From Candidatus Saccharimonadales bacterium (lineage in GTDB: Bacteria > Patescibacteriota > Saccharimonadia > Saccharimonadales > JAXHNE01): a DNA stretch of 64,000 bases. The stretch covers positions 80,850-144,849 of the forward strand of contig JBFIJL010000002.1 of assembly GCA_041600755.1 (NCBI GenBank), given 5' to 3'. This document shows positions 2,238 to 57,071 of this stretch, in pieces; within the stretch, counting starts at the first letter, position 1; each line of letters begins with the position of its first letter. The position numbers were made by a program, and so were the translations under genes. The notes under the pieces are model-generated. The model saw nothing but the letters and a program-made list of their open reading frames with translations, did not search any database and had not been told where the DNA came from.

Positions 2238-3634
<1,397 letters not shown>

Positions 3635-16558: not shown

Positions 16559-16633
16559 TCCGGGGTAGCTCAGCGGTAGAGCGGGAAGCTGTTAACTTCT
16601 AGGTCGCTGGTTCGAATCCAGTCCCCGGAGCCA
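16559..16633 (+). tRNA. tRNA-Asn (anticodon GTT), CCA encoded
   Basis: Hand-folded cloverleaf: acceptor TCCGGGG/CCCCGGA, D arm GCTC-AGCGGTA-GAGC, anticodon arm GGAAG-CTGTTAA-CTTCT, T arm GCTGG-TTCGAAT-CCAGT, then G-CCA. Confidence 0.9.
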
Positions 16634-16799
16634 AAAGATGAGAGTCAGGTGTTTGCCTGGCTCTTTTCTTTGATCTTCGATGATTCGAACCTTGGTCGAA
16701 AATAGCCTGTGGCTATTTGAGTTTTCCTTGCTTGGCCGAACGAGAAATTTCATATTTCAAGAGAGCATATTTAGCACGAATCCAGTCCCCGGAGCCAAG
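16627..16799. repeat. Module M1, copy a (173 bp), bounded at both ends by GGAGCCA of the tRNA-Asn 3' end
   Basis: Aligns over its full length with 26643-26815, with about 8 mismatches by eye. It ends with cgaatccagtccccggagcca, which matches the last 21 nt of the tRNA. Confidence 0.9.
16641..16668 (+). terminator. Hairpin terminator after tRNA-Asn
   Basis: AGAGTCAGG-tgtttg-CCTGGCTCT followed by TTTT. Confidence 0.5.
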
Positions 16800-16889
16800 A
16801 AAGAACCATAGTCTTATGACTGTGGTTTTTTCTATGTTCTGAGATTTGACTTGGACTAAGCGACGCTACAATTTATTGGAGCAAGTCGC

Positions 16890-16964
16890 GCCAGTTCGAT
16901 AATCCCCCGAAGACTATGTCTTCAAACGGGCGGATTATATCCCATAATCCAGTCCCCGGAGCCA
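16890..16964. repeat. Module M2, copy a (75 bp), ends in a tRNA-Asn 3'-end copy
   Basis: gccagtt..ataatcc-cccg-aagac-tat-gtctt-caaa-cggg-c-ggattat...aatccagtccccggagcca. The partner is at 27438-27513. It contains a nested imperfect hairpin. Confidence 0.85.
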
Positions 16965-17018
16965 AAATATGAAAGTCACCCTTGTGGTGGCTTTTGTATT
17001 TTGCCCCTGTGTTTGTGT

Positions 17019-17104
17019 TCGAACCAGGTTGCTCGGAACGAGCTGGTTCGATATTTTGAGTGAGTACGTGCAGTGCTTGCACGTGCGAAAGCTCGCCAAA
17101 ATAT
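17019..17104. repeat. Module M3, copy a (86 bp)
   Basis: TCGAACCAG-(15 nt)-CTGGTTCGA hairpin, then atattttgag...ttgcacgtgcgaaagctcgccaaaatat. The partner is at 28790-28875. GCTGGTTCGA equals the tRNA-Asn T-arm 5' half. Confidence 0.85.
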
Positions 17105-17348
17105 TTCTAAACCCTGTGTTCTGTCTATGATAAACTGCAAAATTACTGTACGAAAAGCGAGTTTCTAGACTATTCCGCAGATGAAACAGAAACACCCGTT
17201 AAAGCTACAGTACGTGTCTTATGCCAACAATATATAAGCCGTCTTAAAACTCTATGAGCTCCAGCAGTTAGCATTGAGCTGTTTAAAGAGTTTAATATAG
17301 GAATATTTAGTTGTATTATATAATCAAATAGTTTACTGAAAGAAACTT

Positions 17349-17831
17349 ATGAATATAACAAACTGGCTTTCCATTATAATAATCGTTCTAGTACTAACCC
17401 TTATACTCTTTATAATTCTGGTAAGTAACAAGCTATCAAGACGGTTATTGTACCTCCATAAACATATTAGTGATTCGGTTCAGTCTAAGTTTATAGATGT
17501 TAGTCCTAGCACCCAGAGTTTAGTGGAAGCTGCGATTGAAGTATGGCGATTAGAGAAACGGATTAGCAAGGTATCAAAAGACCTATCGGAAGACCAAAAC
17601 AAAGCATTTGAAAACTCTATTACAAAGCTGAATAGATTTCTTGATAAAAATGATATTACTTTTGCCGACTATACAGACCAAAAGTATAACGAAGGACTTA
17701 ACTTAGATGTTCTCAGTATTGATAAAGATAAGAATGTAGCTGAGAGCATTATTAAAGAAACCCACGAACCAGCCGTATTCCACAAAGGTCAGTTAATTAA
17801 AAAAGCAAAGGTAGTTGTCCTTGAAAAGTAG
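17349..17831 (+). CDS. Membrane-anchored GrpE-like protein (putative nucleotide exchange factor)
   Basis: N-terminal TM, a coiled coil, and a C-terminal ~50 aa (YNEGLNLDV...IIKETHEPAVFHKGQLIKKAKVVV) resembling the GrpE beta-domain pattern. It lies directly upstream of the Hsp70 gene and overlaps it. Confidence 0.45.
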   Translation: MNITNWLSIIIIVLVLTLILFIILVSNKLSRRLLYLHKHISDSVQSKFIDVSPSTQSLVEAAIEVWRLEKRISKVSKDLSEDQNKAFENSITKLNRFLDKNDITFADYTDQKYNEGLNLDVLSIDKDKNVAESIIKETHEPAVFHKGQLIKKAKVVVLEK

Positions 17832-20355
17832 AAATTCCAAATCAAAGAGTGATGATGGTGTCATTAACATCGGTATAGATTTAGGTACGACTAATTCAGC
17901 AATAGCAGTTAATTATGACGGCAAGACAGAGATAGTAAAGAATGGGGCTGGCAGCGACTACACCCCGTCAGTTTTCGGTATTGATAAGTCTGGGAACAAA
18001 ATTGTAGGCGTTAAGGCATATGACCGACTCTACAAATCATCATCTGATGAGGAAATACAGAATAATAAAGCCGAAGTGAAACGTTTAATGGGTACAGGTG
18101 AAACAATTCACTTTGATAGGATTAACGCTGATTTAACACCCGAAGAAGTATCCGCCGAGATTCTTAAAAGTCTTAAAGAAGATGCAACAAGAAAGTATAG
18201 TGATTTATCTTCTGTTGCTGCTGTTATTACGATTCCTGCACACTTTTCATCATTACAAGCAGAAGCTACTAAACGAGCAGGACAACTAGCTGGATTCAAG
18301 CACGTAGTACTACTGCAAGAACCTATTGCAGCAGCTATGGCATACGGTTTTGAAAAGTCTAATAATGAAAACTGGTTAGTATATGACTTGGGTGGTGGAA
18401 CTTTTGATGTGGCACTCATTTCTTCAAAGGACAGTAATTTAACTGTACTTGGTCATAGTGGCGATAACTTTCTAGGTGGAAAAGACTTTGACTTAAAAAT
18501 CATTGATGAAGTAATAAAACCTGAAATCTTAAATAAGTACAAACTAACTGATTTTGATAGAAGTTCAGAGAAGTATAGTAGTATTTTTGCACGACTAAAG
18601 GCTGCTGCTGAAACTGCAAAGATAGAACTATCTCAGTATGCAAAGACAACAATAGAAGTTGAAGACATTGGTAAAGATGAGAATGGTAACGAGATTTACG
18701 TTTCCATAAACTTGACTCGTGACCAATTTGAAGAAATCATTGCACCTCACATTACGAAAACTATTGAACTTGTAAAGAATACTCTCAAAGATTCTGGTAT
18801 TGCGCAAAGCTCTGTATCTAAGATTGTGCTGGTCGGTGGACCGACGCAGATCCCTTATTTACGAAAAGCACTTGAAGATGAGTTCAAAATAAAGGTAGAT
18901 GGTTCAATAGACCCACTTACAGTTGTGGCTAAAGGTGCAAGCGTTTTTGGACTTAGTCAAAGAGTCCCTACAGATATTCTCAATGAAGGACGAGAATCTG
19001 TTAAAGACGAAATGAATGCAACTTTAAATTACGATTCAATGACATCTGACGACGACCAGACCATTGCAGGAGTTGTTGAAGAATTAAGGGGTAGCGAATC
19101 AGAGTACTTTGTTCAGATTCAAGCAGATAGTGGTTTCTACACTAGTTCAAAAATTAAGCTCAAAGGCGGAAAGTTCTTTGACACAATAGCTATTGATAAG
19201 GGCAAAACAAATACCTATTGGCTTTACCTTTTTGATGACGCTGGAAACACAATACCAATGTTTCCTGACAGCTTTTCAGTAACTCACGGATTAACAGTTG
19301 CTGGTGCGCCTATTCCGCACGACGTGGGCGTTATATACGCTAAAAAAGGTTTTGATAGTGGCTTTCGGATGACCGAAGTCTGTGACCCCTATTTTGAAAA
19401 GAATAGCGTCCCGCCGTTGAAAAAGACCAATAATTACAAAACCGTCAAGAAACTTGAAAAAGGGAAAGAGAATAACTTACCTATCAAGGTTTATGAGGGT
19501 AACTCTACAAATCCTTCAAATAACGAAGTGATAACTACACTTCATATTGATGGCAAGAAGCTTCCTTATGATTTACCAGAAGCTACTGACGTAGATATTA
19601 CAATAAGTATTGATGAGTCACGAACAGTAGTCGTAGAAGCATATATACCGAGTATTGAGCTTACCTTAAATGCTAGGGCTGATACTTATAAGCAACAGGT
19701 TAATGTTTCTGGACTTGAAAAAGATTTAGCTGTACAAAAAGAACGTCTTAAATCAATAAAGAATAATGTTTCAGATGAAGAATATGAACAGCTTGAAAAT
19801 ACGATTGACGACTTAGGCACCAACATTAAGAACGCCAATCTTGATAATGATGATAAGAATAAAGCCGAAAGAGATATGCGTGAGTTAAAGACTAGCTTTG
19901 ATTCATTAGAGCAATCTAAAGAACTCCCGCAGTTGAAAGACGAGTTTAATTCAAAGATTGAAAATGCAAAAGAAATTATTGCTGAACTTGACGAAAGTGC
20001 CGAAAAGAAAGAGATTCTTACTGACTTGAAGGTCTTAGAAGATGAGGGCGAAAAAGCACTTAAAGCCACTGATAAGACAATGTTACTTCGTGTTAATGAG
20101 CAGATTGAGCAACTTACTTTCCGCTCTGTTTTCCAGAACCCTGCTGCCTGGGTGTTAATGCTAAATCAAATCAAAGACAAGCAGAATGAACTGTCTAATC
20201 AAACTGACGCAAATTACTTCATTGATAAAGCAGACAAAGCCGTTGATGAGGGTGATGTTGAAGAACTAAAAAGGTGCGTTCGCAATCTATTAGATTTACT
20301 TCCTAAAGAAACTCAAGATGAAATCAATTCAAGCATGTCAGGTATTACTAAGTAA
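17815..20355 (+). CDS. Atypical long Hsp70-family ATPase (846 aa)
   Basis: GIDLGTTNSAIAV, VKRLMG, AVITIPAHFSSLQAEATKRAGQLAGF, LLQEPIAAAMAYG, VYDLGGGTFDVALI, GDNFLGGKDFD, IVLVGGPTQIPYL. An SBD-beta-like segment (LPIKVYEGNS...DVDITISIDESRTVVVEAY) follows a ~150-aa insert. The C-terminus is a ~230-aa coiled-coil tail. TTG start. Confidence 0.9.
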   Translation: MSLKSRNSKSKSDDGVINIGIDLGTTNSAIAVNYDGKTEIVKNGAGSDYTPSVFGIDKSGNKIVGVKAYDRLYKSSSDEEIQNNKAEVKRLMGTGETIHFDRINADLTPEEVSAEILKSLKEDATRKYSDLSSVAAVITIPAHFSSLQAEATKRAGQLAGFKHVVLLQEPIAAAMAYGFEKSNNENWLVYDLGGGTFDVALISSKDSNLTVLGHSGDNFLGGKDFDLKIIDEVIKPEILNKYKLTDFDRSSEKYSSIFARLKAAAETAKIELSQYAKTTIEVEDIGKDENGNEIYVSINLTRDQFEEIIAPHITKTIELVKNTLKDSGIAQSSVSKIVLVGGPTQIPYLRKALEDEFKIKVDGSIDPLTVVAKGASVFGLSQRVPTDILNEGRESVKDEMNATLNYDSMTSDDDQTIAGVVEELRGSESEYFVQIQADSGFYTSSKIKLKGGKFFDTIAIDKGKTNTYWLYLFDDAGNTIPMFPDSFSVTHGLTVAGAPIPHDVGVIYAKKGFDSGFRMTEVCDPYFEKNSVPPLKKTNNYKTVKKLEKGKENNLPIKVYEGNSTNPSNNEVITTLHIDGKKLPYDLPEATDVDITISIDESRTVVVEAYIPSIELTLNARADTYKQQVNVSGLEKDLAVQKERLKSIKNNVSDEEYEQLENTIDDLGTNIKNANLDNDDKNKAERDMRELKTSFDSLEQSKELPQLKDEFNSKIENAKEIIAELDESAEKKEILTDLKVLEDEGEKALKATDKTMLLRVNEQIEQLTFRSVFQNPAAWVLMLNQIKDKQNELSNQTDANYFIDKADKAVDEGDVEELKRCVRNLLDLLPKETQDEINSSMSGITK

Positions 20356-22187
20356 TGGCTAACCTCTTTCGGGACAACGCATATAACGTGTTAGGTTTAG
20401 ATATATCTGTTGCACAGAAAGAGATAAATAAGCGTTCTAAAGAAATTGTTAATTTACTTCGTATTGATGAGGAATCTACGTATGAAATAGATATTTCTGT
20501 TGCAAAGCCAAAGCGTACAGAATCTACTGTAAAAGAAGCAGTCCAGAAACTAAGTTCACCTACTAAAAAGATTCAGGAGTACTTCTTCTGGTTTGATATT
20601 GAAAGTGATACAGACGAGAAAGCTTTGAAGCTACTTCAATCTGGAAGTATAGATGAAGCAATTCAACTTTGGGAAAAAGATTCTGGCAAAGAAACAGCAA
20701 CAGGGTTTGTAGCAAAAAAGAATCTTGCCATACTTTTTTCTGTTTTGCTTGTAGATAAAGGTCAAAAGAAATATCTTACTCAGTCAATATCTTGCTGGAA
20801 AGATTTAGTAATGTCAGAGAAGTTCTGGTCATATTTTGAAAAGATATATGCGCTTAATGACGAAGTAGGCACCAGTAGTTCTGCCATTAAAGATTTTGAG
20901 TCCAAAGTTACAGATGTATTATCGGACTTCTATACAGATATTAGCCAGACTAAGGGCGATAATAGTTTCTACTCTCTTTTCGCACAAGTATTCGACGTAA
21001 AGGGTCTGAAAATGCAGCGTGATGTATTGTCACCAATCTATGAAGCAATAAATGACACCTCTGAAAAACTTAGGAATCTTAATATAAGTGAAGACAACAT
21101 AGTCAGTCCAGAGGAAATCACTGAATTAAAACGACTCACAAAACTATTACAGACTAATTTTGACAAGTTAAAAGAACTTGGACTCTTCTCCGATAGTCAA
21201 TCAAAGACAATGAGAGATAAAGCAGCAGAAGCACTTAGAGCTGTAGCTTTGGACTTGCATAACAACTTGGGTGAGTCAGAAAAGCCAGTTGCCCTGTTTA
21301 ACATCGCTAGTAAGATTGCAGGTACGACCGCCACTATAAATAAAATAAACAAAGATATTGAAACCCTTCGTCAGAACAGGTCCGATGAAAAGATAATTAA
21401 ACCAATCAACGACTTACTTGAAGATGAGAAGTTCACAGACGCATTAGATTTGATTGAAAAGCGAATGGAGTCCCACAAGTCTAATAAGGAATTAATGGAT
21501 TTCCTGACCGCACGTTTGAAATGGGCTATTACTGGCATTGCAGCTAAAGACTATAAAGAAACAATGCAACAATTTACTAGTGGTCATTTTGCAAAAGCAG
21601 AACAAAACTTTAGCGGCCTAAGAGAGTTTTTATTAAGCTATATTCACTACTTTAACTTCAACCAGGAAGCAATAAACGAAGTCCTTGCAGAGATTGACCA
21701 GTTGACGGGCGACCCAAAAGCGTTAAACATTGATAATGTACAAAACTACAGGAATAAATTACTTGAGGGTACGGAAGAAACTTTCAAAGACTCTTTTGAG
21801 TCCTCATTAATTGTTTTCTTAGTTGATTGTGGGATTTACGGAAATATGGCTGCACACCTCCCAGCAATTAAACGCAAAAATACTATAAAGAAATGGCTTT
21901 GGTATATCGTTATAGGAATTATCTTGCTTGTAATTTTCGGTAGTAGCAGCGATTCAAGCGATACAAACTCAACTTCTGGCAGCAGTTCAAGTTCTAGTAG
22001 CTCAGCTTGGCAAATATGTTCCGATGAATACGATAGACTAAAGAATGAACTGGATAGTGTTGAAGCTTCTATGAGGCGGTATGAGTCGTTTGATGACGCA
22101 GATGGTTATAATGCCCTAGTTCCACGTCAAAATAGTCTCGTGCAGCTGGTGAATAACAAAGCGACAGAATGTAATGGATTAAGATAA
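20355..22187 (+). CDS. J-domain-like protein lacking HPD, with a C-terminal TM, Ser-rich linker and short extracytoplasmic Cys-containing tail
   Basis: N-terminus NAYNVLGLDISVAQKEINKRSKEIVNLL resembles J-domain helices I-II, but no HPD follows. TM is WLWYIVIGIILLVIFG, followed by SSSDSSDTNSTSGSSSSSSSS. The start overlaps the Hsp70 stop (TAATG). Confidence 0.6.
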   Translation: MANLFRDNAYNVLGLDISVAQKEINKRSKEIVNLLRIDEESTYEIDISVAKPKRTESTVKEAVQKLSSPTKKIQEYFFWFDIESDTDEKALKLLQSGSIDEAIQLWEKDSGKETATGFVAKKNLAILFSVLLVDKGQKKYLTQSISCWKDLVMSEKFWSYFEKIYALNDEVGTSSSAIKDFESKVTDVLSDFYTDISQTKGDNSFYSLFAQVFDVKGLKMQRDVLSPIYEAINDTSEKLRNLNISEDNIVSPEEITELKRLTKLLQTNFDKLKELGLFSDSQSKTMRDKAAEALRAVALDLHNNLGESEKPVALFNIASKIAGTTATINKINKDIETLRQNRSDEKIIKPINDLLEDEKFTDALDLIEKRMESHKSNKELMDFLTARLKWAITGIAAKDYKETMQQFTSGHFAKAEQNFSGLREFLLSYIHYFNFNQEAINEVLAEIDQLTGDPKALNIDNVQNYRNKLLEGTEETFKDSFESSLIVFLVDCGIYGNMAAHLPAIKRKNTIKKWLWYIVIGIILLVIFGSSSDSSDTNSTSGSSSSSSSSAWQICSDEYDRLKNELDSVEASMRRYESFDDADGYNALVPRQNSLVQLVNNKATECNGLR

Positions 22188-23257
22188 TGGCAACTCCAAG
22201 CAAACCAATACTTTATAACGGCTATGAAGTCAGCAAGGGCGTAACCATAGTAAACAGAATTGAAAAGATTTTCTTCACTGAGATTTACCGATTAAGTGAT
22301 GACAACTTTTTATATCTGTTTATCAACCTGAAAACTAGTGATGTTCGTGGTGCTAAAGACAGATTAATGAAAATCACTCATCAGGGTACTGAGTATCTTG
22401 GTATTTTAACTACTCAACACTCACAAGAACACGTTACCGAAATTATTGATGGTCTGACTCAATTAAGAGGTTTTGCTTCGGTAGCAGGCATGTCAGAGCT
22501 GAAACATTTGCTGATAAATGATGTCATACAACCCTTACAAAACCCAGAGAAATATGAGAAGTTTAAGTTATCTGTCCCTAATGGAATCCTGCTGTATGGT
22601 CCACCAGGGTGCGGTAAAACTTTTATTGTTCGCAAGCTAGCAGAGGAGCTTGGTTACAACTTTGTTGAAGTAAAACATTCGGACATTGCTTCTTCTTACA
22701 TTCACGGCACAGTTGCAAAGGTAGGAAGGCTGTTTGAAATGGCTAAGCTCAAAGCACCGTCAATTATTTTTATAGATGAAATTGAAGGCCTGATTCCCAA
22801 GCGTGAATCTATGGGTTCAGAGTCGCAACATAAGCAAGAAGAAATCAATGAGTTTCTTATGCAGCTTAATGACGCTGGCAAGAATAAGGTACTGGTTGTT
22901 GCAGCGACAAATAGACCGCATTTAATTGATACTGCTCTATTGAGGGCTGGACGAATGGACAAACGAATAATGGTATCGCCACCAGATTTAGAAGCGAGAG
23001 AAGAACTATTTAAGTTATTTTTATCAGAACGTCCTACCAAAGATATTGATTACAAACAACTGGCTAAACTGACAGAATACTTTGTTAGCGCAGATATAGA
23101 ACTAATTGTTACAGAATCAGCTAGGGGAGCTGTTTTCCAAGATTTAGAGTATATTACGCAAGAAGTTGTAGAAGCTACTATCAAATCAACTACCCCTTCA
23201 ATTCTAGAAGATGAAATTGAATACTACAAACAGTTTGCAAGTATGGAAAGAATCTAA
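22187..23257 (+). CDS. Classical-clade AAA+ ATPase (single AAA domain, Cdc48/FtsH-like) with a unique N-terminal domain
   Basis: Walker A GPPGCGKT, Walker B IIFIDEIE, and second region of homology ATNRPHLIDTALLRAGRMDKRI. TAATG overlap with the upstream gene. Confidence 0.9.
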   Translation: MATPSKPILYNGYEVSKGVTIVNRIEKIFFTEIYRLSDDNFLYLFINLKTSDVRGAKDRLMKITHQGTEYLGILTTQHSQEHVTEIIDGLTQLRGFASVAGMSELKHLLINDVIQPLQNPEKYEKFKLSVPNGILLYGPPGCGKTFIVRKLAEELGYNFVEVKHSDIASSYIHGTVAKVGRLFEMAKLKAPSIIFIDEIEGLIPKRESMGSESQHKQEEINEFLMQLNDAGKNKVLVVAATNRPHLIDTALLRAGRMDKRIMVSPPDLEAREELFKLFLSERPTKDIDYKQLAKLTEYFVSADIELIVTESARGAVFQDLEYITQEVVEATIKSTTPSILEDEIEYYKQFASMERI

Positions 23258-23916
23258 TGCAAGCGTGGAATAACTTTGAGTATAAGAGTTCTGTGCCTTT
23301 TTTTCGCTGGAATTACCCAGAAGACAAAAAGACTAACTTAGATAGCCTTTTCAAACGCAGGAGTTTACTTCCTGAACTATTCTTAGGACTTATACTCTTT
23401 GCTTCTTTTAATAGTTGGTCTGATACATCACAGAGCTTCGGTAATTTACTCATTTACGTATTGTGGGTACTAATAGCACTAGCTTTGTTTACGCTAGCAA
23501 TAGTAAATGGAAAGTCTTTGCTATTGCCAGATGTAATTACTCGTCCTTTAACACTTCTAATAACAGTTTTTCAGTTACTTGTAGCTATACAAACAGACAA
23601 TGCAGGGCATTTAGGTTCTGTCTTACTTGGAGGATTAATTGTAGGTGGTGTCCCATACATGCTATTTCAGATTTCTCAAGGTAAATGGATTGGTGGTGGG
23701 GATGTGAAGCTAGGTTTTGCTGCTGGATTATTGCTCGGCTGGAAAATTGGTTTATTGTGCCTAGGTATAGTATTTGCATTAACGCTGCTATCAATTTTAT
23801 TTGAAGTCGTAAGCAGCAAAGCTTCAAAAACTGAGTCACCATTTCGCATTGGAACTGGAACAATATGGGTTCTCTCTATTTTTCTAGCGTTATTTATTGG
23901 TCAGCAGATAATCTAG
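23257..23916 (+). CDS. A24-family (prepilin peptidase-like) membrane aspartyl protease, no methyltransferase domain
   Basis: Polytopic, with both catalytic-Asp motifs: LLLPDVITRPL and GGGDVKLGFAAGLLLG. TAATG overlap with the AAA+ gene. Confidence 0.7.
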   Translation: MQAWNNFEYKSSVPFFRWNYPEDKKTNLDSLFKRRSLLPELFLGLILFASFNSWSDTSQSFGNLLIYVLWVLIALALFTLAIVNGKSLLLPDVITRPLTLLITVFQLLVAIQTDNAGHLGSVLLGGLIVGGVPYMLFQISQGKWIGGGDVKLGFAAGLLLGWKIGLLCLGIVFALTLLSILFEVVSSKASKTESPFRIGTGTIWVLSIFLALFIGQQII

Positions 23917-24006
23917 CTAGACAACCGCCACTTAAAGTATGCGATATATCTGCATTGAGAAAATTACATTATTCGTACTATACTTTAATAAAATGAGTGA
24001 CAGTAT

Positions 24007-24867
24007 ATGAAAGAGACTTTATTCGGCATATTTATAATCGTTTGGTTGGCGATTATTGTTCTATGGGTTATAGCCTTGATAAAACCCAAAGCGAAAGTAT
24101 TTAATACGCTACAGTCAAGATTTAATGGGCGTAAAGGATTATCAAAACTCTTTGCGCCTTTATTTATTATCTCGTTTATATTTCTAGCCGTGTTTTCACC
24201 TCCTTTAGCTGTTGAGCTCAAAGGACTTAATCTGGAAGCTGACCAAGAAGTTATCACCGAGCAATTTACTATAGAAGGAGAGGTTTCTGGTAGCTTTAAG
24301 ACGTTTTTAGTTAATAATGAAGCAATTACTTTAGAAAAAGGTAGGTTTTCAAAGACTCTTAATTTAAAGCCAGGCGATAATAAGGTTAAAATCTTGCTAA
24401 CCTATGTTGACGAGGAAGACAAAGAAGTTGAAGCATTTAATAAGACGCACAACATATACTTTGATTACGAGGGAATGCTATATGCTCGTGAACTAGAAAA
24501 GGACAAGCAAGCAGAAGATGAGTTAAAACGAAAGCTTGCTGAAATACCAAGGTATGAAACTGTACGTAAGACAGATATAGAAAACGGCTTCTCTGCAATT
24601 ATATATGTTGAAGGCAATATGGAAGACTATCAGATAACTAATATTGCTAAAGATATTGAAAATAATAATTCTGACACGAAGAACATCTCGGTGCTTATGT
24701 TTAGTAAGACACAAAAAACAGAGGTTGAGGCTGTGCTTGAAAATAGTACCCCTTCTGAACTCATTACATATATCCGAGCAAATTATGAGAAACGTGACAG
24801 TAATAAGCAGCTATTTTGGTTCCCTAAGGGCGCAGAGGACGAGAAGCTTGCATTGGAGATACAATGA
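24007..24867 (+). CDS. Hypothetical membrane-anchored protein
   Basis: N-terminal TMs, then a 200-aa Lys/Glu-rich region. No recognisable motif. Confidence 0.55.
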   Translation: MKETLFGIFIIVWLAIIVLWVIALIKPKAKVFNTLQSRFNGRKGLSKLFAPLFIISFIFLAVFSPPLAVELKGLNLEADQEVITEQFTIEGEVSGSFKTFLVNNEAITLEKGRFSKTLNLKPGDNKVKILLTYVDEEDKEVEAFNKTHNIYFDYEGMLYARELEKDKQAEDELKRKLAEIPRYETVRKTDIENGFSAIIYVEGNMEDYQITNIAKDIENNNSDTKNISVLMFSKTQKTEVEAVLENSTPSELITYIRANYEKRDSNKQLFWFPKGAEDEKLALEIQ

Positions 24868-25700
24868 TTAAAAAACTCAAATACATAGCGTTATTACTTA
24901 TATTATTAACAGTTCCTCAACAAGTTCTGGCTCACCCAGGAAGAACAGATTCCAGTGGCGGACATAACTGTCGCACTGGTCCATGTGCTGGAACATACCA
25001 CTATCATAATGGGGGCGGTTCAACAGCACCTTCGTCACCCGCACCCACGCCAGCCCCTACACCCGCACCCACGCCAGCCCCACAGCCAGTGACTCAACCA
25101 AAACCAAAGAAAACAATTGAGACTATAAGTGGCTTAGTTTCGGTAAGTGCAGCGAATACGCTCTGGGTTGATTTAATTCTTGAGGAAGTATCTAGAAGCA
25201 AAACCGCAACAAACTATACGACAGTTAATCCAGTCACCACAGCCACGAGTAGAATCACTGGTGCAACTCAAGAACCGAAAGTTAATGGAGACCAGAAGTT
25301 TTATTACGTGAGTGAAGTGACGGACGGTGATACGATAAAAGTAGTTGTTGACGGCAGAATTGAAAAGGTTAGGCTGCTTGGTATAGATACACCAGAAACA
25401 AAAGACCCCCGTAAGCCAGTGCAGTGCTTTGGCATGGAAGCTAGTAAGTACGCAGCTACGTTGATGCTCAATAAATATGTACGTTTAGAGCTTGATAAAT
25501 CTCAAGGGGACAGAGACAGGTACAACAGACTGCTTAGGTATGTATATCTTGAGAACGGTGCGGAGGTTAATGCCGAGCTTGTAAAGCAGGGTTATGCACT
25601 AGCATATCTTCGTTATCCAGTTGCACAAACTGAAACTTACAAACAACTACAATCAAAAGCAGAAAGTCAGAGTCTTGGGCTATGGAGTGCTTGCAGATGA
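24864..25700 (+). CDS. Secreted YHYH-domain / Pro-Thr linker / thermonuclease (SNase) fusion
   Basis: Signal peptide ...QQVLAHPGRTDSSGGHNCRTGPCAGTYHYHNGG (YHYH motif), (PAPT)n linker, then DGDTIKV...VRLLGIDTPETKDPRKPVQCFG...RDRYNRLLRYVYL...GLW. Confidence 0.85.
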   Translation: MIKKLKYIALLLILLTVPQQVLAHPGRTDSSGGHNCRTGPCAGTYHYHNGGGSTAPSSPAPTPAPTPAPTPAPQPVTQPKPKKTIETISGLVSVSAANTLWVDLILEEVSRSKTATNYTTVNPVTTATSRITGATQEPKVNGDQKFYYVSEVTDGDTIKVVVDGRIEKVRLLGIDTPETKDPRKPVQCFGMEASKYAATLMLNKYVRLELDKSQGDRDRYNRLLRYVYLENGAEVNAELVKQGYALAYLRYPVAQTETYKQLQSKAESQSLGLWSACR

Positions 25701-25740
25701 TAAGAATAGTACTTCTATTAAAATCACTAAGGCTTGATGT

Positions 25741-26367
25741 ATGATTTGGATAATTTTAGCCGCACTGATTTTGATATGCTTTGTTATTTATAGATTTACT
25801 AAACGGCTAATGATAGACATACGAGCAGGAAAAGCTAAGCAAAAAGGTTTATTTAGTAAAAGAGAATGGAGAGCAATACCTTTCCAAACTAGTGGTTCTC
25901 ACGGGGTCCCTATGCGCATGGCATTCAGTGAAATTGCTACTAAAAGTGCTTACCAAGGTAATTTCAAAGTTACGTTCAGTCGTTTTATAGATACTGCGAT
26001 GATTGCTGACGATAAATTGAACGCAGATGAAGTAAGACATCTAATAGAAACTCTATACGACGACCTGTCAGCCATACAATTCCTCGGAGATTCGCACACT
26101 ATGACTAGAGAATATGGTATGGTGCAAGCTGCAACACTTTATGCGCTTATTTGTACTCAAGACAAAGGTGCGAATATAAAGCGTCGTTTAATGGTGAGCA
26201 AGGATAATCACAGTGAAAACAATATGTATTTACAGCAGAAGACCGATAGAGAATACTTTGAATACATGAATGATAGTTACCCCAATTTCTGTCAAATGGT
26301 TAGCATACTTGAGCCACGCAAGGCTAATTTGATAGAAGTAGTTGCTGGATACTTATTAACTGATTAA
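25741..26367 (+). CDS. Hypothetical protein with an N-terminal TM
   Basis: 208-aa ORF with no recognisable motif. Confidence 0.5.
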   Translation: MIWIILAALILICFVIYRFTKRLMIDIRAGKAKQKGLFSKREWRAIPFQTSGSHGVPMRMAFSEIATKSAYQGNFKVTFSRFIDTAMIADDKLNADEVRHLIETLYDDLSAIQFLGDSHTMTREYGMVQAATLYALICTQDKGANIKRRLMVSKDNHSENNMYLQQKTDREYFEYMNDSYPNFCQMVSILEPRKANLIEVVAGYLLTD

Positions 26368-26642
26368 GTTGATAAAATCTTTATAGGTAACTATTTAGAA
26401 ACACAGGTGTTTTATATTTAGGCACTTTGCCGATGTTCTATTAGAAAGAGCGTTTTAATATCGCAGTTGAAAGCGCAAAACAGAATATACCTATATATAT
26501 TAGTTTTTGCGTTTTTAAATACTATCCCATATAGGTTCAAAGCCTTGTGCGTCAGGTTCAAAATAACGCCTAGCATTATCTACTTCACGGGCTAAGCGTA
26601 CAATAGCGTTGTAATACTTAGTGCGGAACATGTACGGTAGAG

Positions 26643-26815
26643 GGAGCCAAAAGATGAGAGTCAGGTGTTTGCCTGGCTCTTTTCTTTTATCTTCGATGAT
26701 TCGAACCTTGGTCGAAAATAGCCTGTGGCTATTTGAGTTTTCACTGCTTGACCGAACGATAAATTTCATATTTAGAGAGAGCATATTTAGCACGAATCCA
26801 GTCCCCGGAGCCAAG
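26643..26815. repeat. Module M1, copy b (173 bp)
   Basis: See 16627-16799. It also ends in cgaatccagtccccggagcca. Confidence 0.9.
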
Positions 26816-26934
26816 CCGTAAAAGACAAAGTCAGAACTGTGAAAATGGCAGAGATTTTTTGATACCCAGACTAAGATTGAAACTACTAAATTCTTATGCT
26901 TGCATTTCAGTAAAACTAGATAAATAATTTCATT

Positions 26935-27291
26935 ATGCCAGTTTACTATTCTGTTGAAATAACTAAACACGATGACCCAGATGCTGAAGCCAGTTTTTTA
27001 ATTCGTCCACCAATAAGCTTTCTCAGCCCGAAGACTAAGGGAGAGCTGGTGGATACACTTCGAAGTCTTATTAGGAACCGATTGGGCGATAATGAGGACG
27101 ATGATTTACGGCTCGCAATTACCCATAATCTTGCAGATGACTCAGCAACAGTTGGACGTGCACATTTTCGTGGGCTTCAACTTGCTACTGGAGTAGTGGT
27201 TCTGCAACAGGCCTTAGAGCTTGGACTAAATGGCACCAATGCGTTTGTTAGTCCAACTAGCCCCATGAGAAGCAAGTCAGCATTTGATTAG
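26935..27291 (+). CDS. Hypothetical 118-aa protein (cassette between M1b and M2b)
   Basis: ORF with no recognisable motif. It is followed by ...gttgtgagccaaa and a hairpin (gtccgtcc-tgaaaa-gggcgg-ttttt). Confidence 0.45.
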   Translation: MPVYYSVEITKHDDPDAEASFLIRPPISFLSPKTKGELVDTLRSLIRNRLGDNEDDDLRLAITHNLADDSATVGRAHFRGLQLATGVVVLQQALELGLNGTNAFVSPTSPMRSKSAFD

Positions 27292-27437
27292 GCACACTCC
27301 AAGTCAGCCTTAATTATAGTTATAACTTCCTCATTGTTGTGAGCCAAATAAAGTCCGTCCTGAAAAGGGCGGTTTTTATTTGGCTTTGTGAATTGAGCTG
27401 GATTCAAGCGACTTGCCAACCCGTTGGCGATAGTCGT

Positions 27438-27513
27438 GCCAGTTTAATAATCCACCGAAGCCTATGTCTTCAAACGGGCGGATTATACCCGAGTAATCCA
27501 GTTTTCGGAGCCA
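27438..27513. repeat. Module M2, copy b (76 bp, more degenerate)
   Basis: gccagttt.ataatccaccgaagcctatgtcttcaaacgggcggattata...taatccagttttcggagcca. Confidence 0.85.
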
Positions 27514-27586
27514 AGCCTAAGAACATAACCAACAGGGAAAGGACGCAATTATTTTATTGAGAGGTAGTAAACACTTAACTCGTTGA

Positions 27587-28318
27587 CTATTTATCGTACC
27601 CGGCACCGATCTTAGGTTTTTGAATATAGCTTTTTACCTTTGATGGATCAACTAATAAATCGTTAGTAAGAATTTCAACATAGTTTTTTACAAAACCTGG
27701 AGTGCCAGAAATAGCTATCTCTGAGTCCCCTGAAACAACATTTTCAAGTTGCTTTGATTTAATTTTATTTGGAGAGACTACTTCTTCGAGGCTTACATTC
27801 TCTAATTCTTTGGTCATTTTTTCTATTTCTTTACCAAAGATAAAATCCTCATCTTTGTTGGCATAGAATATCGATATGTTTGTACCTCGCCTATCCTCAT
27901 ATTCATCCTTAAGTATTGAGTAGAGTGGGGCCACCCCAATGCCCCCTACGATAAAGACCTGGTGTTTATCGTAGTCTTGTATCTTGAAATTATCCATCAT
28001 GAATGACGGGCCAATTGCCTTTATTTTGTCTCCTGCATTTAATTTGAATAATGCTTTCTTAAACGAACTAGAATGTTCGCCAAAATACCTGGTTGAAAAT
28101 GCTAGGTTCTCTTCATGTGGAGCAGATGTAATTGAAAAGACTCTTATGCCTCCTCTTTTATCTTTACTTTTGTGCTTTAAGCTAAATATAAAGTGCTGTC
28201 CCGCTTGATATTCTTGTCTTGGCTTTGTAAACCTAAAGGTATAAACGTTTTGCGCTTCTTGTTTTTTATCAATAAATTCAATCGTGTCGGATTTTAAACC
28301 TTGAATGATATTTTTCAT
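27587..28318 (-). CDS. Ferredoxin-NADP reductase-like FAD/NAD(P)-binding oxidoreductase
   Basis: RVFSITSAP (RxYS-type FAD motif) and VGGIGVAPLYSIL (NAD(P) motif). The start is set at internal Met 28318 so the operator-like palindromes stay intergenic. Confidence 0.7.
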   Translation of the reverse strand: MKNIIQGLKSDTIEFIDKKQEAQNVYTFRFTKPRQEYQAGQHFIFSLKHKSKDKRGGIRVFSITSAPHEENLAFSTRYFGEHSSSFKKALFKLNAGDKIKAIGPSFMMDNFKIQDYDKHQVFIVGGIGVAPLYSILKDEYEDRRGTNISIFYANKDEDFIFGKEIEKMTKELENVSLEEVVSPNKIKSKQLENVVSGDSEIAISGTPGFVKNYVEILTNDLLVDPSKVKSYIQKPKIGAGYDK

Positions 28319-28359
28319 ATTTACCCCATGCTTTCTTTTTAGCGAGAATACTATTTCCA

Positions 28360-28401
28360 CTTTACTTAGTAAAGTCTATTGTACGGCTTTACTAAGTAAA
28401 G
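28360..28401. promoter_or_regulatory. Two copies of a 15-bp near-palindrome in the divergent oxidoreductase/HxlR intergenic region
   Basis: CTTTACTTAGTAAAG at 28360-28374 and its reverse complement CTTTACTAAGTAAAG at 28387-28401. Between and beside them are GTCTATTGTAC / GTACAATAGAC. Confidence 0.45.
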
Positions 28402-28413
28402 TACAATAGACTT

Positions 28414-28728
28414 ATGGAAAGTTTGTGTAAAAAAGACACTCCTGAGCACATAAAAGAAGCTCTATTGATACTAGGTGATAAATGGTCAGCTCTTATATTG
28501 AAGCAACTTCACCATAGCCCTCATAGGTATTCTGAAATGGAGGAGAAACTAAGCGGAATAAGTAGCCGAACTCTAGCAAAACGCTTAGATATGCTGATTG
28601 AGAAAGATATTATCCAAAAAAGTACATTCAACAGTGCCAAACATCATGTTTATGAACTAACAAAAAAGGGTAGAGCCATGGATGAAATAATTCATGCAAT
28701 GGCCCAATGGGGAAAGAAGTTTAGCTAG
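28414..28728 (+). CDS. HxlR-family winged-helix transcriptional regulator
   Basis: LILGDKWSALILKQL...RYSEMEEKLSGISSRTLAKRLDMLIEKDII. 104 aa. Confidence 0.85.
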   Translation: MESLCKKDTPEHIKEALLILGDKWSALILKQLHHSPHRYSEMEEKLSGISSRTLAKRLDMLIEKDIIQKSTFNSAKHHVYELTKKGRAMDEIIHAMAQWGKKFS

Positions 28729-28789
28729 CAAGAGTTCTAGGAGTTCGCAGCTATAACTTTCTCTATCGTTGTGAGCCGAAAGAAAGGAG

Positions 28790-28875
28790 TCGAACCAGGT
28801 AGCAAGGAACTATCTGGTTCGATATTTTGAGCGATTACGTCCAGCACTTGCACGTGCGAAAGCTCGCCAAAATAT
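28790..28875. repeat. Module M3, copy b (86 bp)
   Basis: The same TCGAACCAG/CTGGTTCGA stem with a different 15-nt loop, then atattttgag...cttgcacgtgcgaaagctcgccaaaatat. Confidence 0.85.
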
Positions 28876-29032
28876 AGCTTAATAATCCAGCCCCGTCGTG
28901 ACCCTGGAACTTCATCTTCGCAAACAAGTTCCCAAGAGAAGGTTTCCCTGCAAAAGTCCATAGGATTTTCTAACCGCGGAGCAATCATTAGCACCATTAC
29001 CCACAATCAAAACGACTCTGATATGTTAAAAT

Positions 29033-29278
29033 ATGACCATGAATGACGACCAGCTAAATGATTTAAAACAGTTTATAGATTCACGAATCTCACAGTCTGT
29101 TGAAAATCTAGCCTCAAAAGATGATATAAAAACCCTAGCCTCAAAAGATGATATAAAACGACTCGAACAAAAGGTAGACGACGGATTCTCTGGAGTTGGT
29201 GAAGCAGTTGATGAAGTGAATCAAGCCTTAACTAACCACGAACAACGTGTAACAAAACTAGAAGCCAAAATAGCTTAA
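29033..29278 (+). CDS. Hypothetical 81-aa coiled-coil protein with an internal 9-aa tandem duplication
   Basis: LASKDDIKT/LASKDDIKR is encoded by a 27-nt period repeat (29108-29158). Confidence 0.5.
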   Translation: MTMNDDQLNDLKQFIDSRISQSVENLASKDDIKTLASKDDIKRLEQKVDDGFSGVGEAVDEVNQALTNHEQRVTKLEAKIA

Positions 29279-29306
29279 TACCCAGAGCCAAGACATAATA
29301 AACCGG

Positions 29307-29361
29307 GTCAGAACTGTGAAAATGGTTCTGGCTTTTCTGCACCCGGAATAGAATTAAAGCC
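29307..29361. repeat. Module M4, copy a (55 bp: terminator hairpin plus tail)
   Basis: gtcagaactgtgaaaatggttctggcttttctgcacccggaatagaattaaagcc. The partner is at 30517-30571 (3 mismatches). A partial copy is at 26830-26848. Confidence 0.9.
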
Positions 29362-29369
29362 AACAAGTT

Positions 29370-29930
29370 CTATTTCTTGATTATCGACTGAACCATTGTT
29401 TCTCGGAGATTTTGAGAGTAAGTTTCTACTTCTGAGAAATCTGGTAACGACAATATGGATCTAACTGCTCCCGAGGCAGTGCTAAAAGCAACAAACATTG
29501 CTTCTTTTTTACTAACACAAAGCAAATCTGCATCATCTAGCTTAAGCAATAGGTCGGTAAATCCTTTGTGGGCTATTCGAGCAGCAGGTGTGAATTGCCC
29601 AGCATATACATCGCCATACATTATCTCGTATAAATCAGGGTTCTTTGCGCCAAACTTTACATGGAAATCCCATCCAATTCGAAGATCGTCTACTAGGCTT
29701 TTGCTACTACTCGGTAGCTCGGTAGCCATATACCTTTTAAATCCTTGTTCTGCTAAAGAATTCAGAAGTCCTTGTTTATCCTCAAATATTCTATATATAG
29801 TAGGGGCTTGAACGCCGGCTTTGTCTGCAACTTTGCGAATACTAAGCTCGTCACGTCCAATATCTTGAAGCACTTTCTCTGCTGCCTCAAGAATTTTGGT
29901 GCGATTCTTCTCTTGGATAGATGTGTTCAT
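29370..29930 (-). CDS. TetR/AcrR-family transcriptional regulator
   Basis: N-terminal HTH: ILEAAEKVL...SIRKVADKAGVQAPTIYRIFEDKQGLL. Confidence 0.85.
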   Translation of the reverse strand: MNTSIQEKNRTKILEAAEKVLQDIGRDELSIRKVADKAGVQAPTIYRIFEDKQGLLNSLAEQGFKRYMATELPSSSKSLVDDLRIGWDFHVKFGAKNPDLYEIMYGDVYAGQFTPAARIAHKGFTDLLLKLDDADLLCVSKKEAMFVAFSTASGAVRSILSLPDFSEVETYSQNLRETMVQSIIKK

Positions 29931-30031
29931 GGCTTTAATTATAATCCTAGTTGTTTAACAATAAACGCTCATGGTAATATTAATAGTGTTAACGCTGTTA
30001 ACACTATATCAAGAATGAAAGGAAAGAAACA

Positions 30032-30448
30032 ATGTTTGACGTAGTAGGAGATATAAATTGGATTGCTGTTGTATTGGGTGTAGTTGCTTGTACGGTTTTG
30101 GGTGGAGCTTGGTTCGCTGGATTAATGGCGAAGCCGTATGCAATGGCACTTGGACTTGATCCAAAGAAAAAACCAGAAATGAATACACTGTCTTACGTCG
30201 GACCCATGATTAGTACTTTTTTCGTTGCAGTAACAAGTGCAGTATTGTTTGAAGCTCTAGGAATTGTGGAATTTGGCGATGCTCTTATATTCAGCCTTGT
30301 TGTCGGTGTTGGATATCTTGTTGCAACTATGTTTAATGTTGCTATCAACCCAAAGTTTCCGAACCCGACTGCCTACGCTGTAGTAAATGCGCCATACTTC
30401 TTGCTCTGTAGCGTGATAATAAGCTCCATCTATGTTGCAATAAATTAG
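30032..30448 (+). CDS. Small polytopic membrane protein (DUF1761-like)
   Basis: INWIAVVLGVVACTVLGGAWFAGLMAKPY plus three further TMs. Divergent from the TetR gene. Confidence 0.5.
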   Translation: MFDVVGDINWIAVVLGVVACTVLGGAWFAGLMAKPYAMALGLDPKKKPEMNTLSYVGPMISTFFVAVTSAVLFEALGIVEFGDALIFSLVVGVGYLVATMFNVAINPKFPNPTAYAVVNAPYFLLCSVIISSIYVAIN

Positions 30449-30516
30449 ACTAAACTGTCTTTTTTATGCAAGCACAATTACTGTAGCAATGCATGAAGCA
30501 ACTACAAGAAAACAAA

Positions 30517-30571
30517 GTCAGGACTGTGAAAATGGTTCTGGCTTTTCTGCGCCCAGAATAGAATTAAAGCC
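30517..30571. repeat. Module M4, copy b
   Basis: See 29307-29361. Confidence 0.9.
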
Positions 30572-56937: not shown

Positions 56938-57029
56938 GGAGAGGTGTCCGAGTGGTTGAAGGAGCACGCTTGGAAAGCGTGTAAGCGGGGCGACTCGTTT
57001 CGGGGGTTCGAATCCCCCTCTCTCCGCCA
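56938..57029 (+). tRNA. tRNA-Ser (anticodon GGA), class II with a long variable arm, CCA encoded
   Basis: Acceptor GGAGAGG/TCTCTCC, anticodon arm CACGC-TTGGAAA-GCGTG, long variable arm, T arm GGGGG-TTCGAAT-CCCCC. Confidence 0.9.
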
Positions 57030-57071
57030 TGAAAAGACGACAGACATTGGGCTGTCGTTTTTTTATTGGCA
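57009..57071. repeat. 63-bp direct repeat, copy 1 (tRNA-Ser 3' end plus terminator)
   Basis: cgaatccccctctctccgccatgaaaagacgacagacattgggctgtcgtttttttattggca is identical to 57182-57244. Confidence 0.9.
57032..57066 (+). terminator. Rho-independent terminator after tRNA-Ser
   Basis: GACGACAG-acattggg-CTGTCGT followed by T7. Confidence 0.6.

Follow-up and report, generated by a model that had tools for sequence, protein, structure and literature searches.

Tandem genomic islands that share one small-RNA gene as their insertion site have been described in Dehalococcoides, in which the ssrA-specific islands are bounded by 20-bp repeats of the 3' end of the transfer-messenger RNA (tmRNA) gene, with insertion in the T-loop and a conserved motif beside each repeat; 16 of these islands carry a serine-recombinase integration module, while some without it are regarded as cis-mobilizable (PMC3146451). 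We analyzed a 64,000-nucleotide stretch of a Candidatus Saccharimonadales genome (contig JBFIJL010000002.1, positions 80,850 to 144,849; hereafter the window, whose own numbering is used below), in which a tRNA-Asn(GTT) gene is followed by an array of small cargo cassettes and short structured segments that we call S units. The Dehalococcoides array is the closest described case: in both, tandem islands lie 3' of a single small-RNA gene, repeats of about 20 bp derive from the 3' end of that gene, insertion falls in or near the T-loop, a short conserved motif stands just upstream of each repeat, and there are segments that lack an integration module. Unlike in Dehalococcoides, no cassette here carries a recombinase, the units are far smaller (0.16-10 kb, often with one gene, down to "empty" units of 165 bp), and the boundaries go beyond a 20-bp repeat, being formed by conserved modules with a length of about 100 bp or more (a tail element, RE, with GAGCCA and a head module, M4, or else a structured S unit); the Dehalococcoides islands have nothing that corresponds to the S unit. 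We lean towards the reading that the array arose by accretion of recombinase-less cassettes, which would have entered by site-specific recombination at copies of the tRNA end with the enzyme acting in trans. No description of this arrangement in Saccharibacteria was found in the searchable literature.

The anchor gene lies directly 3' of smpB, encodes its own CCA and was recognized by ARAGORN as well as by Rfam (68.6 bits). Its terminal bases, GAGCCA, are the boundary common to all units, and the array consists of two kinds of segments, S units and cargo cassettes, each of which starts right after a copy of this hexamer (Table 1). Reading outward from the tRNA, the proximal part contains S unit 1a, S unit 2 and a segment in which a hairpin and module M3a are followed by an eight-gene operon, a possible orphan ORF fragment and GGAGCCA, up to S unit 1b. 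Distal to S unit 1b come a cassette with a 118-aa open reading frame (ORF) between a decayed M4 head (M4a') and RE-GAGCCA, the S unit that holds M2b, a cassette with an oxidoreductase and an HxlR regulator that closes with RE-GAGCCG, and the S unit that holds M3b and a decayed tRNA-end copy. The outermost part is formed by a cassette with an 81-aa ORF that ends in a boundary relic, the M4b-headed cassette with the TetR and DUF1761 genes, and M4c. Genes upstream of the array are smpB and those for glycosyl-transferases and hydrolases. The G+C content (GC) of positions 16,634-30,571 is 0.382, as compared to 0.449 and 0.443 in the two flanks; it lies between 0.35 and 0.42 in the 9-kb cargo (17349-26367) and is back at the flank level just past M4c, so that by composition the array has the character of an island. 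The SmpB protein of the host shares at most 58% identity with any GTDB species representative, and its nearest relatives by SmpB (86% identity) are other metagenome assemblies.

Table 1. Segments of the tRNA-Asn array, and the related unit at tRNA-Ser, in window coordinates.
Feature	Position	Strand	Details
tRNA-Asn(GTT)	16559-16633	+	ARAGORN, Rfam
S unit 1a (M1a)	16634-16797	+	Terminator hairpin 16640-16665; antisense T-loop copy GATTCGAACC; 21-nt tRNA 3' copy 16777-16797
S unit 2	16798-16964	+	Hairpin; M2a 16858-16945; 19-nt tRNA 3' copy 16946-16964
Hairpin and M3a	16965-17104	+	S-unit body: hairpin TCGAACCAG/CTGGTTCGA, second hairpin; without 3' tRNA copy; opens into the 9-kb cargo
Eight-ORF cargo	17349-26367	+ (co-oriented)	
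Possible orphan C-terminal ORF fragment, ~42 codons	26515-26642	-	Abuts the GGAGCCA that begins M1b; no Pfam match
S unit 1b (M1b)	26643-26813	+	Identity with M1a from GGAGCCA to GAGCCAAG
Cargo cassette, 118-aa	26814-27346	+	Decayed M4 head 26823-26884; ORF 26935-27291; RE AGTTATAACTTCCTCATTGTTGT 27318-27340; GAGCCA 27341-27346
S unit (M2b)	27347-27513	+	Hairpin arms 27342-27361 / 27366-27385; M2b 27406-27494; decayed tRNA 3' copy 27495-27513
Cargo cassette, oxidoreductase and HxlR	27514-28778	mixed	Oxidoreductase 27587-28360 (-); HxlR 28414-28728 (+); RE GCTATAACTTTCTCTATCGTTGT 28750-28772; GAGCCG 28773-28778
S unit (M3b)	28779-28895	+	M3b and decayed tRNA 3' copy AATCCAGCCCCG 28884-28895
Cargo cassette, 81-aa	28896-29290	+	81-aa coiled-coil ORF 29033-29278; relic ..taatacccaGAGCCA 29285-29290
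Cargo cassette, TetR and DUF1761	29291-30509	mixed	M4b head 29300-29361; TetR 29370-29930 (-); DUF1761 membrane protein 30032-30448 (+)
M4c, outermost M4 copy	30510-30571	+	Decayed core AGCAAC just before it
tRNA-Ser(GGA) and 173-bp unit	56938-57244	+	tRNA-Ser 56938-57029

A preliminary description of this DNA had proposed four tRNA-derived modules, M1 to M4, that delimit cargo. Self-BLAST and a repeat finder, run over the window, recovered all four in the order described, with the second copies separated by the cargo named there (the 118-aa ORF, an NAD-binding oxidoreductase, HxlR, the 81-aa ORF, TetR and the DUF1761 membrane protein). M1 (16627-16799 vs 26643-26815) is identical at 166 of 173 positions (96%), M2 (16884-16965 vs 27432-27514) is 87% identical, or 87/109 (~80%) when extended to 16858/27406, and M3 (17019-17104 vs 28790-28875) matches at 76 of 86 positions (88%). 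M4 (29307-29361 vs 30517-30571; 52/55, 95%) does stand at both ends of the TetR and membrane-protein pair, and a partial third copy occurs at 26804-26848 (82%). The exact 19-mer AATCCAGTCCCCGGAGCCA, with zero occurrences expected in shuffled sequence, was found at 16615 (the tRNA itself), 16779, 16946 and 26795, and with 3 mismatches at 27495; M1 and M2 end in these copies, and the modules are indeed derived from the tRNA. Relics of GAGCC(A/G) were found at 26644, 27341, 28773 and 29285, the last three following the 118-aa, HxlR and 81-aa genes as had been noted, and the decayed tRNA-end copy at 28884 comes right after M3b. The hairpin made from the T-arm half in M3 is present in both copies with differing loops. 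Terminator-like hairpins follow most tRNA-end copies (16640, 26656 and 27355 by scan, the others by eye and by folding), and none is obvious after the copy at 27495. The outer boundaries of the array are progressively more decayed. Another 3-mismatch match to the 19-mer, for which ~0.01 is expected per window, was seen at 25227-25245 inside the SNase-fusion ORF, where it encodes NPVTTAT; as it has no boundary context, it is probably a chance match.

Identity between M1a and M1b opens precisely at GGAGCCA and closes at GAGCCAAG, and these edges would fit the insertion of 10,016 bp either at the end of the tRNA or at the copy that stands behind S unit 1, with the orphan fragment as the right edge of the 10,016-bp repeat unit. 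The locus is split over three contigs in a separate assembly of short reads from this organism (Logan, SRR29257383), and every break falls exactly k-1 = 30 nt inside the ends that M1a and M1b have in common, so that all four M1 junctions are present in those reads; the short-read graph alone does not separate the integrated form from an empty site plus a 10-kb circle. The two M1 copies have diverged by 4%, as compared to ~17% for the M2 and M3 spans pooled (33/194; Fisher p = 7e-5), and the M1 pair is therefore either younger than the M2 and M3 pairs or homogenised. This difference disfavours a single block duplication as the source of all three pairs, an origin that the preliminary description had suggested. 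Its observation that the pattern is not that of simple nested serial integration is supported. The colinear order M1 M2 M3 ... M1' M2' M3' is accounted for by two RE-type cassettes that interrupt a distal S1-S2-S3 series: when they are dropped from the distal array, S1-S2-S3 is restored, colinear with the proximal S1-S2-M3a. By itself the colinear order is weak evidence, having a 1/6 chance for three items.

Conserved sequences were found at both ends of the cargo cassettes. The cassettes contain one to eight genes, and each carries a terminator hairpin of its own at the start. One conserved type of head is M4: ten copies from seven sources share GAGCCA-AGC...GAAGTCAGAAC-loop-GGTTCTGAC-TTTTTG...ACCCAGAATAGAATTGAAAC, and M4 stands directly after GAGCCA also in the related loci L090, L095, L099, L109 (three times) and L114. 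Several cassettes close with the RE tail, GTTATAACTTCCTCTATTGTTGT, a conserved and diverged tRNA 3' end of 23 nt followed by GAGCCA. In the window, RE follows the 118-aa ORF (at 27318, spotted by eye and by a BLAST match to L084) and the HxlR gene, abutting GAGCC(A/G) in each case; it also closes cassettes in L084, L092, L101 and L109, with a variant in L103. Variants such as GTTCTAACTTCCGTCACTACCCG-GAGCCA (L103, L101) link RE to the tRNA sequence GGTTCGAATCCAGTCCCCG-GAGCCA, indicating that RE is a conserved, diverged copy of the tRNA end, and RE is kept across genomes whose SmpB proteins are only ~60% identical. Pairing of RE with the M4 tail as an attC-like stem was considered and rejected, as the M4 tail shows no covariation with the sequence to its left.

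Comparison with related loci showed that occupancy polymorphisms among relatives have their breakpoints at GAGCCA. L088 and L098 are identical over 738 nt, comprising the tRNA, the terminator and the S unit, to the last A of GAGCCA and are unrelated beyond it. L092 contains a one-gene cassette of ~545 bp between GAGCCAGAAT and RE-GAGCCAGAAT, and the sequence after this cassette resembles that found directly after the S unit in L087 and L102. In L084 (SmpB 86% identical), tRNA-Asn is followed by a terminator hairpin, an M2-like body ending CCAGTCTCCGGAGCCA and an island of ~3.8 kb, after which come agttataacttcctctattgttgtGAGCCA (RE-GAGCCA) and the same terminator and body again, up to the contig end; this is the M1...M1' design with a different cargo. 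A homologue of the 118-aa protein (83% identity) is found in L109 in the identical package of M4 head, ORF and RE-GAGCCA, with two other RE-bounded cassettes, not S units, as its neighbours, and L114 holds the 118-aa gene between decayed boundaries. Two readings offered in the preliminary description, cassette exchange between repeats and miniature non-autonomous tRNA-targeting elements, come close to these comparative data, namely the conserved ends, the recurrence in L109 and the breakpoints at GAGCCA. More distant 118-aa homologues (67-74%) lie directly beside tRNA-Arg, without RE or M4 (L110:7912-8342, L112:1743-2915). The one in L110 begins 12 nt after tRNA-Arg(CCT), and a XerC/D-like recombinase gene lies two genes upstream; the latter was discarded as a candidate recombinase of the array because its context is unrelated.

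The same breakpoints bear on whether homologous recombination alone could have produced the array. On that explanation, the repeated S units and M4 are conserved intergenic modules, and RecA-dependent unequal crossing-over together with Campbell-type integration of transformed DNA, with no dedicated recombinase or site, would duplicate and exchange the segments lying between these modules. Long and similar flanking repeats are at hand for such exchange (M1, 173 bp at 96%; the L084 pair of ~180 bp; the exact 61-nt repeat at tRNA-Ser described below), the S units in L101 are mosaic (the 5' half identical, the insert different), the organisms are probably competent since Saccharibacteria carry competence genes, the short-read graph is compatible with a 10-kb circle and an empty site, and no recombinase was found in the ORFs scanned. 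However, at least five genomes with independent events all break at the same GAGCCA, what an RE tail has in common with the sequence it replaces is limited to the last 6-10 nt, which is too short for RecA exchange on that side, and the conservation of RE at ~60% SmpB identity points to a selected recognition sequence rather than drift. Overall, we consider homologous recombination alone an improbable explanation.

An S unit is a segment of about 165-200 bp. It opens with a terminator hairpin and closes with 18-22 nt copied from the tRNA 3' end; between them lies a body rich in hairpins and organized around a split T-arm copy, in which the 5' half of the T-arm is present once inverted and once in direct orientation, and a structured insert stands at the T-loop position. 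The units measure 164, 167, 165 (27349-27513) and 173 bp in the window and 163-184 bp elsewhere; M3a is without the tRNA 3' copy, and M3b keeps only a decayed one. To scan metagenomes, we used a pattern in which the tRNA-Asn end is followed 145-175 nt later by CCGGAGCCA. The scan yielded 17 contigs, and in 16 of them the second site was the full ATCCAGTCCCCGGAGCCA, of which just 9 of the 18 nt were required by the pattern, with a terminator and a body of ~110-140 nt in between; ARAGORN called a complete tRNA-Asn gene in 12 of the 17, the gene being at the contig end or split by a group I intron in the rest. These 16 contigs and one related metagenome-assembled genome (MAG; L084) thus carry an S unit 3' of tRNA-Asn. 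The scanned units share a common plan: a terminator hairpin, then a hairpin formed by the tRNA segment GTCGCTGGTT(CG) as 3' strand and the complement of this segment as 5' strand, then a hairpin-rich insert of 60-75 nt exactly at the T-loop continuation, and finally ATCCAGTCCCCGGAGCCA, indicating that the unit is a copy of the tRNA 3' half that is split in the T-loop. The insert sequences fall into at least four unrelated types. In the commonest type, 93% of cells were paired, and 8 pairs showed compensatory changes vs 3.7 in shuffles (1/500), while controls slid by 1-3 columns gave 0-3 such pairs. Covariation, which the preliminary description had proposed as a check, is therefore present in the commonest insert type of the relatives and is not shown for M1 of the window, and a body-only model was too weak for the window copies.

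When the tRNA-end copy was left out, the bodies of M2 and M3 still resembled units of other genomes, with local-alignment z of 5-10 (0/300 shuffles for the best matches): the body of S unit 2 resembles the unit of L084 (z 9.9) and L099_3 (z 7.3), and M3a that of L090 (z 7.6). Fold z was -4.1 for M3a and -3.3 for M3b. In M1, the T-loop is copied in antisense at offset 49-58, and the unit closes with a sense copy of 21 nt. Rather than being unrelated private modules, M2 and M3 are variants of a single widespread architecture, as is M1 by its layout. The possibility that the modules are ordinary conserved intergenic sequence in relatives, which would have counted against the preliminary description, is half borne out, in that the S-unit architecture follows tRNA-Asn in many Saccharibacteria. 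Synteny through smpB covered 80 GTDB loci and six closer relatives, most of which have no tRNA-Asn after smpB; the informative cases were limited to L084 and to metagenome contigs from farther away in relationship. In IMG/VR, exact-pattern scans gave no match to RE or to the cores of M1, M2 and M3, and a scan with the 18-mer of the tRNA end gave one chance match inside a phage gene (L104) and one integrase remnant (L105, see below). Rfam, applied to the whole window at the gathering threshold and to 7 related loci at E<=1, matched only tRNA and the group I intron, and we could not match the S unit to any described element. The group I intron, of ~220-280 nt, splits the anticodon loop of tRNA-Asn in several Saccharibacteria (L004:4430-4648, L088, L098, L090); RF00028 scores 102 bits in L088 and 83 in L090, and ARAGORN misses tRNAs split in this way.

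A similar unit was found at a second tRNA gene of the window, tRNA-Ser(GGA). Here, a 61-nt exact direct repeat, made of the 19-nt tRNA 3' end and a 42-nt terminator, starts at 57011 and at 57184 (the latter ending at 57244), and the two copies flank a 112-nt body with three hairpins (fold z -3.8) and an antisense T-loop copy at the same offset as in M1. A pseudo-tRNA on the minus strand of this unit was ruled out, as its putative T-stem is unpaired and ARAGORN made no call. Among 54 tRNA-Leu loci in relatives, a 3'-end duplicate was present in only one, L064 (13795-14006, minus strand), where a tRNA-Leu(CAA) has an uninterrupted, classical 52-nt duplicate reaching from the anticodon loop to the 3' end, with 75 nt between the copies; this is a minimal integration scar without the split-T-loop design. 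The unit at tRNA-Ser and the tRNA-Leu survey together indicate that the S unit is neither universal nor restricted to tRNA-Asn. Farther 3' of tRNA-Ser are genes for an HNH endonuclease (59267-59914, minus strand) and a GP88-family protein (59950-60873), suggesting that tRNA-Ser may also anchor foreign DNA.

Folding and covariation would also be expected if the S units were a family of structured noncoding RNAs derived from tRNA 3' halves (processing, decoy or regulatory RNAs), beside which ordinary islands inserted. The tRNA-sense strand is the one with the compensatory changes and G-U pairs, the unit sequences show tetraloops of the CUUG type, the fold of the tRNA-Ser unit is a junction of three hairpins that leaves the ...CUCUCCGCCA tail free, a terminator comes after each unit as it would after a gene, and the unit is conserved beside tRNA-Asn in many genomes. 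Set against this, a strong terminator stands directly before each unit, with no convincing promoter in the 20-30 nt between that terminator and the unit, no Rfam family matches, and the inserts are of at least four unrelated types. In addition, it is specifically at cassette boundaries, behind RE-GAGCCA, that the units turn up again (in the window, L084 and L101), and their sequences frequently contain GCGAAGC-type mini-hairpins, which are typical of stable DNA hairpins. We therefore assign a small probability to the RNA family as the explanation of the units.

With regard to the enzyme, direct repeats of the tRNA 3' portion with the intact tRNA at one end are what is seen in islands integrated at tRNA genes, and all segments are bounded by tRNA-end copies as putative attachment (att) sites and carry no recombinase, an arrangement that would fit cis-mobilizable elements and accretion; the 64-kb window contains no intact element whose integrase could mobilise them. 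Pfam scans of the ORFs at 16.6-32.4 kb and of ten further ORFs in the window detected no integrase or transposase domain, and hence no integrase of the array's own next to an att site and no Phage_integrase match that could represent intI. The L084 island has no recombinase domain on record, and no integrase was recognised by eye next to arrays in the metagenome loci. CRISPR-associated transposon (CAST) homing CRISPR RNAs, TnpB/IscB guide RNAs and IS110 bridge RNAs were considered for the 18-nt target match at the unit end and discarded, as no such gene was seen: the ORFs scanned at 16.6-32.4 kb held no transposase, Cas or TnpB-like domain, and related loci were checked by eye or by precomputed Pfam marks only. 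A relation to tmRNA, considered on account of the adjacent smpB, was also discarded, as ARAGORN found no tmRNA in the window and the acceptor end reads as Asn-type. Recombinase-bearing elements do use tRNA-Asn, as indicated by the viral contig L105 (IMGVR_UViG_3300033074_000763), in which, on the reverse strand at ~3000-3300, a tyrosine integrase is represented by no more than its C-terminal ~45 codons (..TTKIYLHASELRK.., ...TTKIYLHAS...); next come a tRNA-Asn 3' half of 44 nt, extending from the anticodon loop to CCA, and a terminator. This site is an attP or attR of an element that targets tRNA-Asn by the anticodon-loop route.

The integrase remnant in L105 is among the observations that would suit a more conventional history, in which integrase-encoding islands or prophages entered the tRNA-Asn T-loop or 3' end serially and then lost the integrase and other content, leaving M1-M3 as remnants of attP arms. 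Direct repeats of a tRNA 3' end are the standard footprint of such integration, the L064 duplicate with its 75 nt between copies has the same character, and the decay of boundaries outward in the window, as well as around the 118-aa gene in L114, would be expected of old scars. Random deletion, however, would not be expected to leave units of near-constant size with the same internal layout and covarying stems. Moreover, an integrase is kept in 0 of the ~20 cassettes inspected, and the fact that single-gene cargoes unrelated to one another have conserved heads and tails speaks for a cassette system, not for wreckage. Decayed scars are thus quite unlikely to account for the locus.

Returning to accretion of recombinase-less cassettes, we infer the site specificity of recombination, the enzyme acting in trans and the order of events as follows. 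Circular or incoming cassettes would recombine conservatively and site-specifically at or next to the GAGCCA of the tRNA or of a downstream copy; the cassette head would give a new terminator to whatever lies upstream, and the tail, RE or S unit, would rebuild the target downstream. In this way cassettes and S units would pile up while older boundaries decay outwards, with a trans-acting recombinase encoded elsewhere in the genome or by a helper element. A single insertion or duplication of 10,016 bp, comprising S1, S2 and M3a along with the Hsp70 operon and the orphan fragment, would be marked by the M1...M1' pair. The locus is best classed as an integration hotspot with island accretion anchored on a tRNA gene and with some traits of an integron; the accretion of integrative and conjugative elements and cis-mobilizable elements (ICE/CIME) in Streptococcus is a further example of accretion.

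Integrons consist of attI, attC sites and the integrase IntI; their cassettes carry no recombinase, and attC has the inverse core RYYYAAC and the core GTTRRRY. The array resembles them in its small, often single-gene cassettes without a recombinase, separated by conserved sites of ~60-140 nt with a short shared core, in having a site that is partly better conserved in structure than in sequence, in having the older cassettes outermost, and in the occurrence of the same cassette in different arrays (the 118-aa cassette, L109). It differs in that no intI was found beside it, the anchor is a tRNA gene and not attI, the orientation of genes is mixed, and a folded single-strand substrate is not in evidence; the cores GTTRRRY and RYYYAAC are absent from the boundaries, the core being GAGCCA, and RE holds GTTATAAC, which fits neither consensus. 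Xer-dependent modules are known as integrative mobile elements exploiting Xer (IMEX) and as the pdif modules of Acinetobacter plasmids. The cassettes may be likened to them as recombinase-less modules that are bounded by copies of a host site, would be moved in trans by a host enzyme and accumulate in tandem; here, unlike there, the boundaries are tRNA 3'-end copies, without a recognisable dif-like dyad of 11-6-11 on inspection, and the location is a tRNA gene and not the terminus or a plasmid. Williams in 2002 reportedly set out a sublocation scheme of tRNA integration sites with a T-loop/3'-end class for tyrosine integrases. As in that class, the identity blocks of M1 and of the tRNA-Ser unit start inside the T-loop (CGAAT...) and run to CCA and beyond, and the element brings a replacement terminator; unlike in that class, an integrase and arm-type sites are not identifiable, and the RE cassettes share only their last 6-10 nt with the target.

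Several points weigh against accretion by a site-specific recombinase. The catalytic step, together with the recombinase that would perform it, is hypothetical. No presence/absence variant of the window's own cassettes was found, the polymorphisms being in other genomes only, and the hexamer GAGCC(A/G) alone is not enriched at 16-32 kb (12 seen vs ~8 expected), only longer contexts of it being significant. The identity blocks at the boundaries range from 6 to 61 nt, so that the crossover point is not pinnable from them, and homologous recombination through modules of ~100-170 bp would give similar products. The divergent regulator/gene pairs and the cassettes' own terminator heads are unlike classical promoterless integron cassettes. 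As to the S units, M1 may be placed in the family by layout only: its body has no significant match outside the window, and it folds no better than shuffles. With the body-only covariance model R1, built from foreign bodies only and low in information, M3b was found at E=0.25 and M3a at E=2, and M2 was not found. Finally, the tRNA-sense strand carries compensatory changes and G-U pairs that would be explained equally well by a transcribed RNA and by a folded DNA strand.

The eight genes of the 9-kb cargo encode, in order, a small membrane protein of 160 aa, an Hsp70-like protein (846 aa), a 610-aa protein, an IetA-like AAA ATPase (356 aa), an A24 prepilin-peptidase-like membrane protein (219 aa), a 286-aa protein, a secreted SNase fusion (278 aa) and a 208-aa protein. 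The N-terminus of the 610-aa protein is J-domain-like by eye and has no Pfam match. PADLOC returned for the cargo only a generic IetA-like AAA match (best match IetA, 1e-37) and SNase-type matches; the operon is not a catalogued defence system and could be a novel conflict or quality-control module. The SNase (thermonuclease) gene of the island (24864-25700) has a paralogue in the core genome, upstream of smpB (12876-13454), and the two proteins have near-identical C-terminal stretches, for example ..RFIGIDTPETKDPRKPVQCFG.. and ..RLLGIDTPETKDPRKPVQCFG..; the island protein has a Pro/Thr/Ala-rich linker that is encoded by 12-15-bp repeats (25021-25081). In the 81-aa coiled-coil ORF, a 27-bp tandem duplication (29103-29156, 93% identical) repeats the peptide ASKDDIK(T/R)L. 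An RE-bounded cassette in L109 (1820-2158, minus strand) encodes a protein with a CdiA_C (contact-dependent inhibition toxin C-terminal) domain, suggesting that toxin/immunity genes may be typical cargo.

Patescibacteria have tiny genomes with few recognised mobile elements and rely on DNA uptake from hosts, and their gain of accessory genes is poorly understood. A further-reaching possibility, which we hold tentatively and on the doubtful side, is that Saccharibacteria, and perhaps other Patescibacteria, possess an integron-like capture platform on tRNA 3' ends, in which a chromosomal recombinase acting in trans would insert and excise cassettes that are headed by M4 and tailed by RE or an S unit; the covarying S unit would then be a folded recombination site, like attC or the folded attP of the CTX phage, rebuilt from the adjacent tRNA (Asn or Ser). 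The S unit, a split tRNA 3' half with covarying hairpins, occurs at two different tRNAs. If the platform at tRNA-Asn is real, with its standard heads and tails, its largely single-gene cargo (regulators, oxidoreductases, nucleases, toxin-like and possibly defence-related genes) and no recombinase in cis, it would point to a dedicated route of gene gain and loss in a large and mostly uncultured lineage. The tRNA-end copies, RE and M4, repeats of a kind that now breaks assemblies, are landmarks that should reveal this variable gene pool in MAGs.

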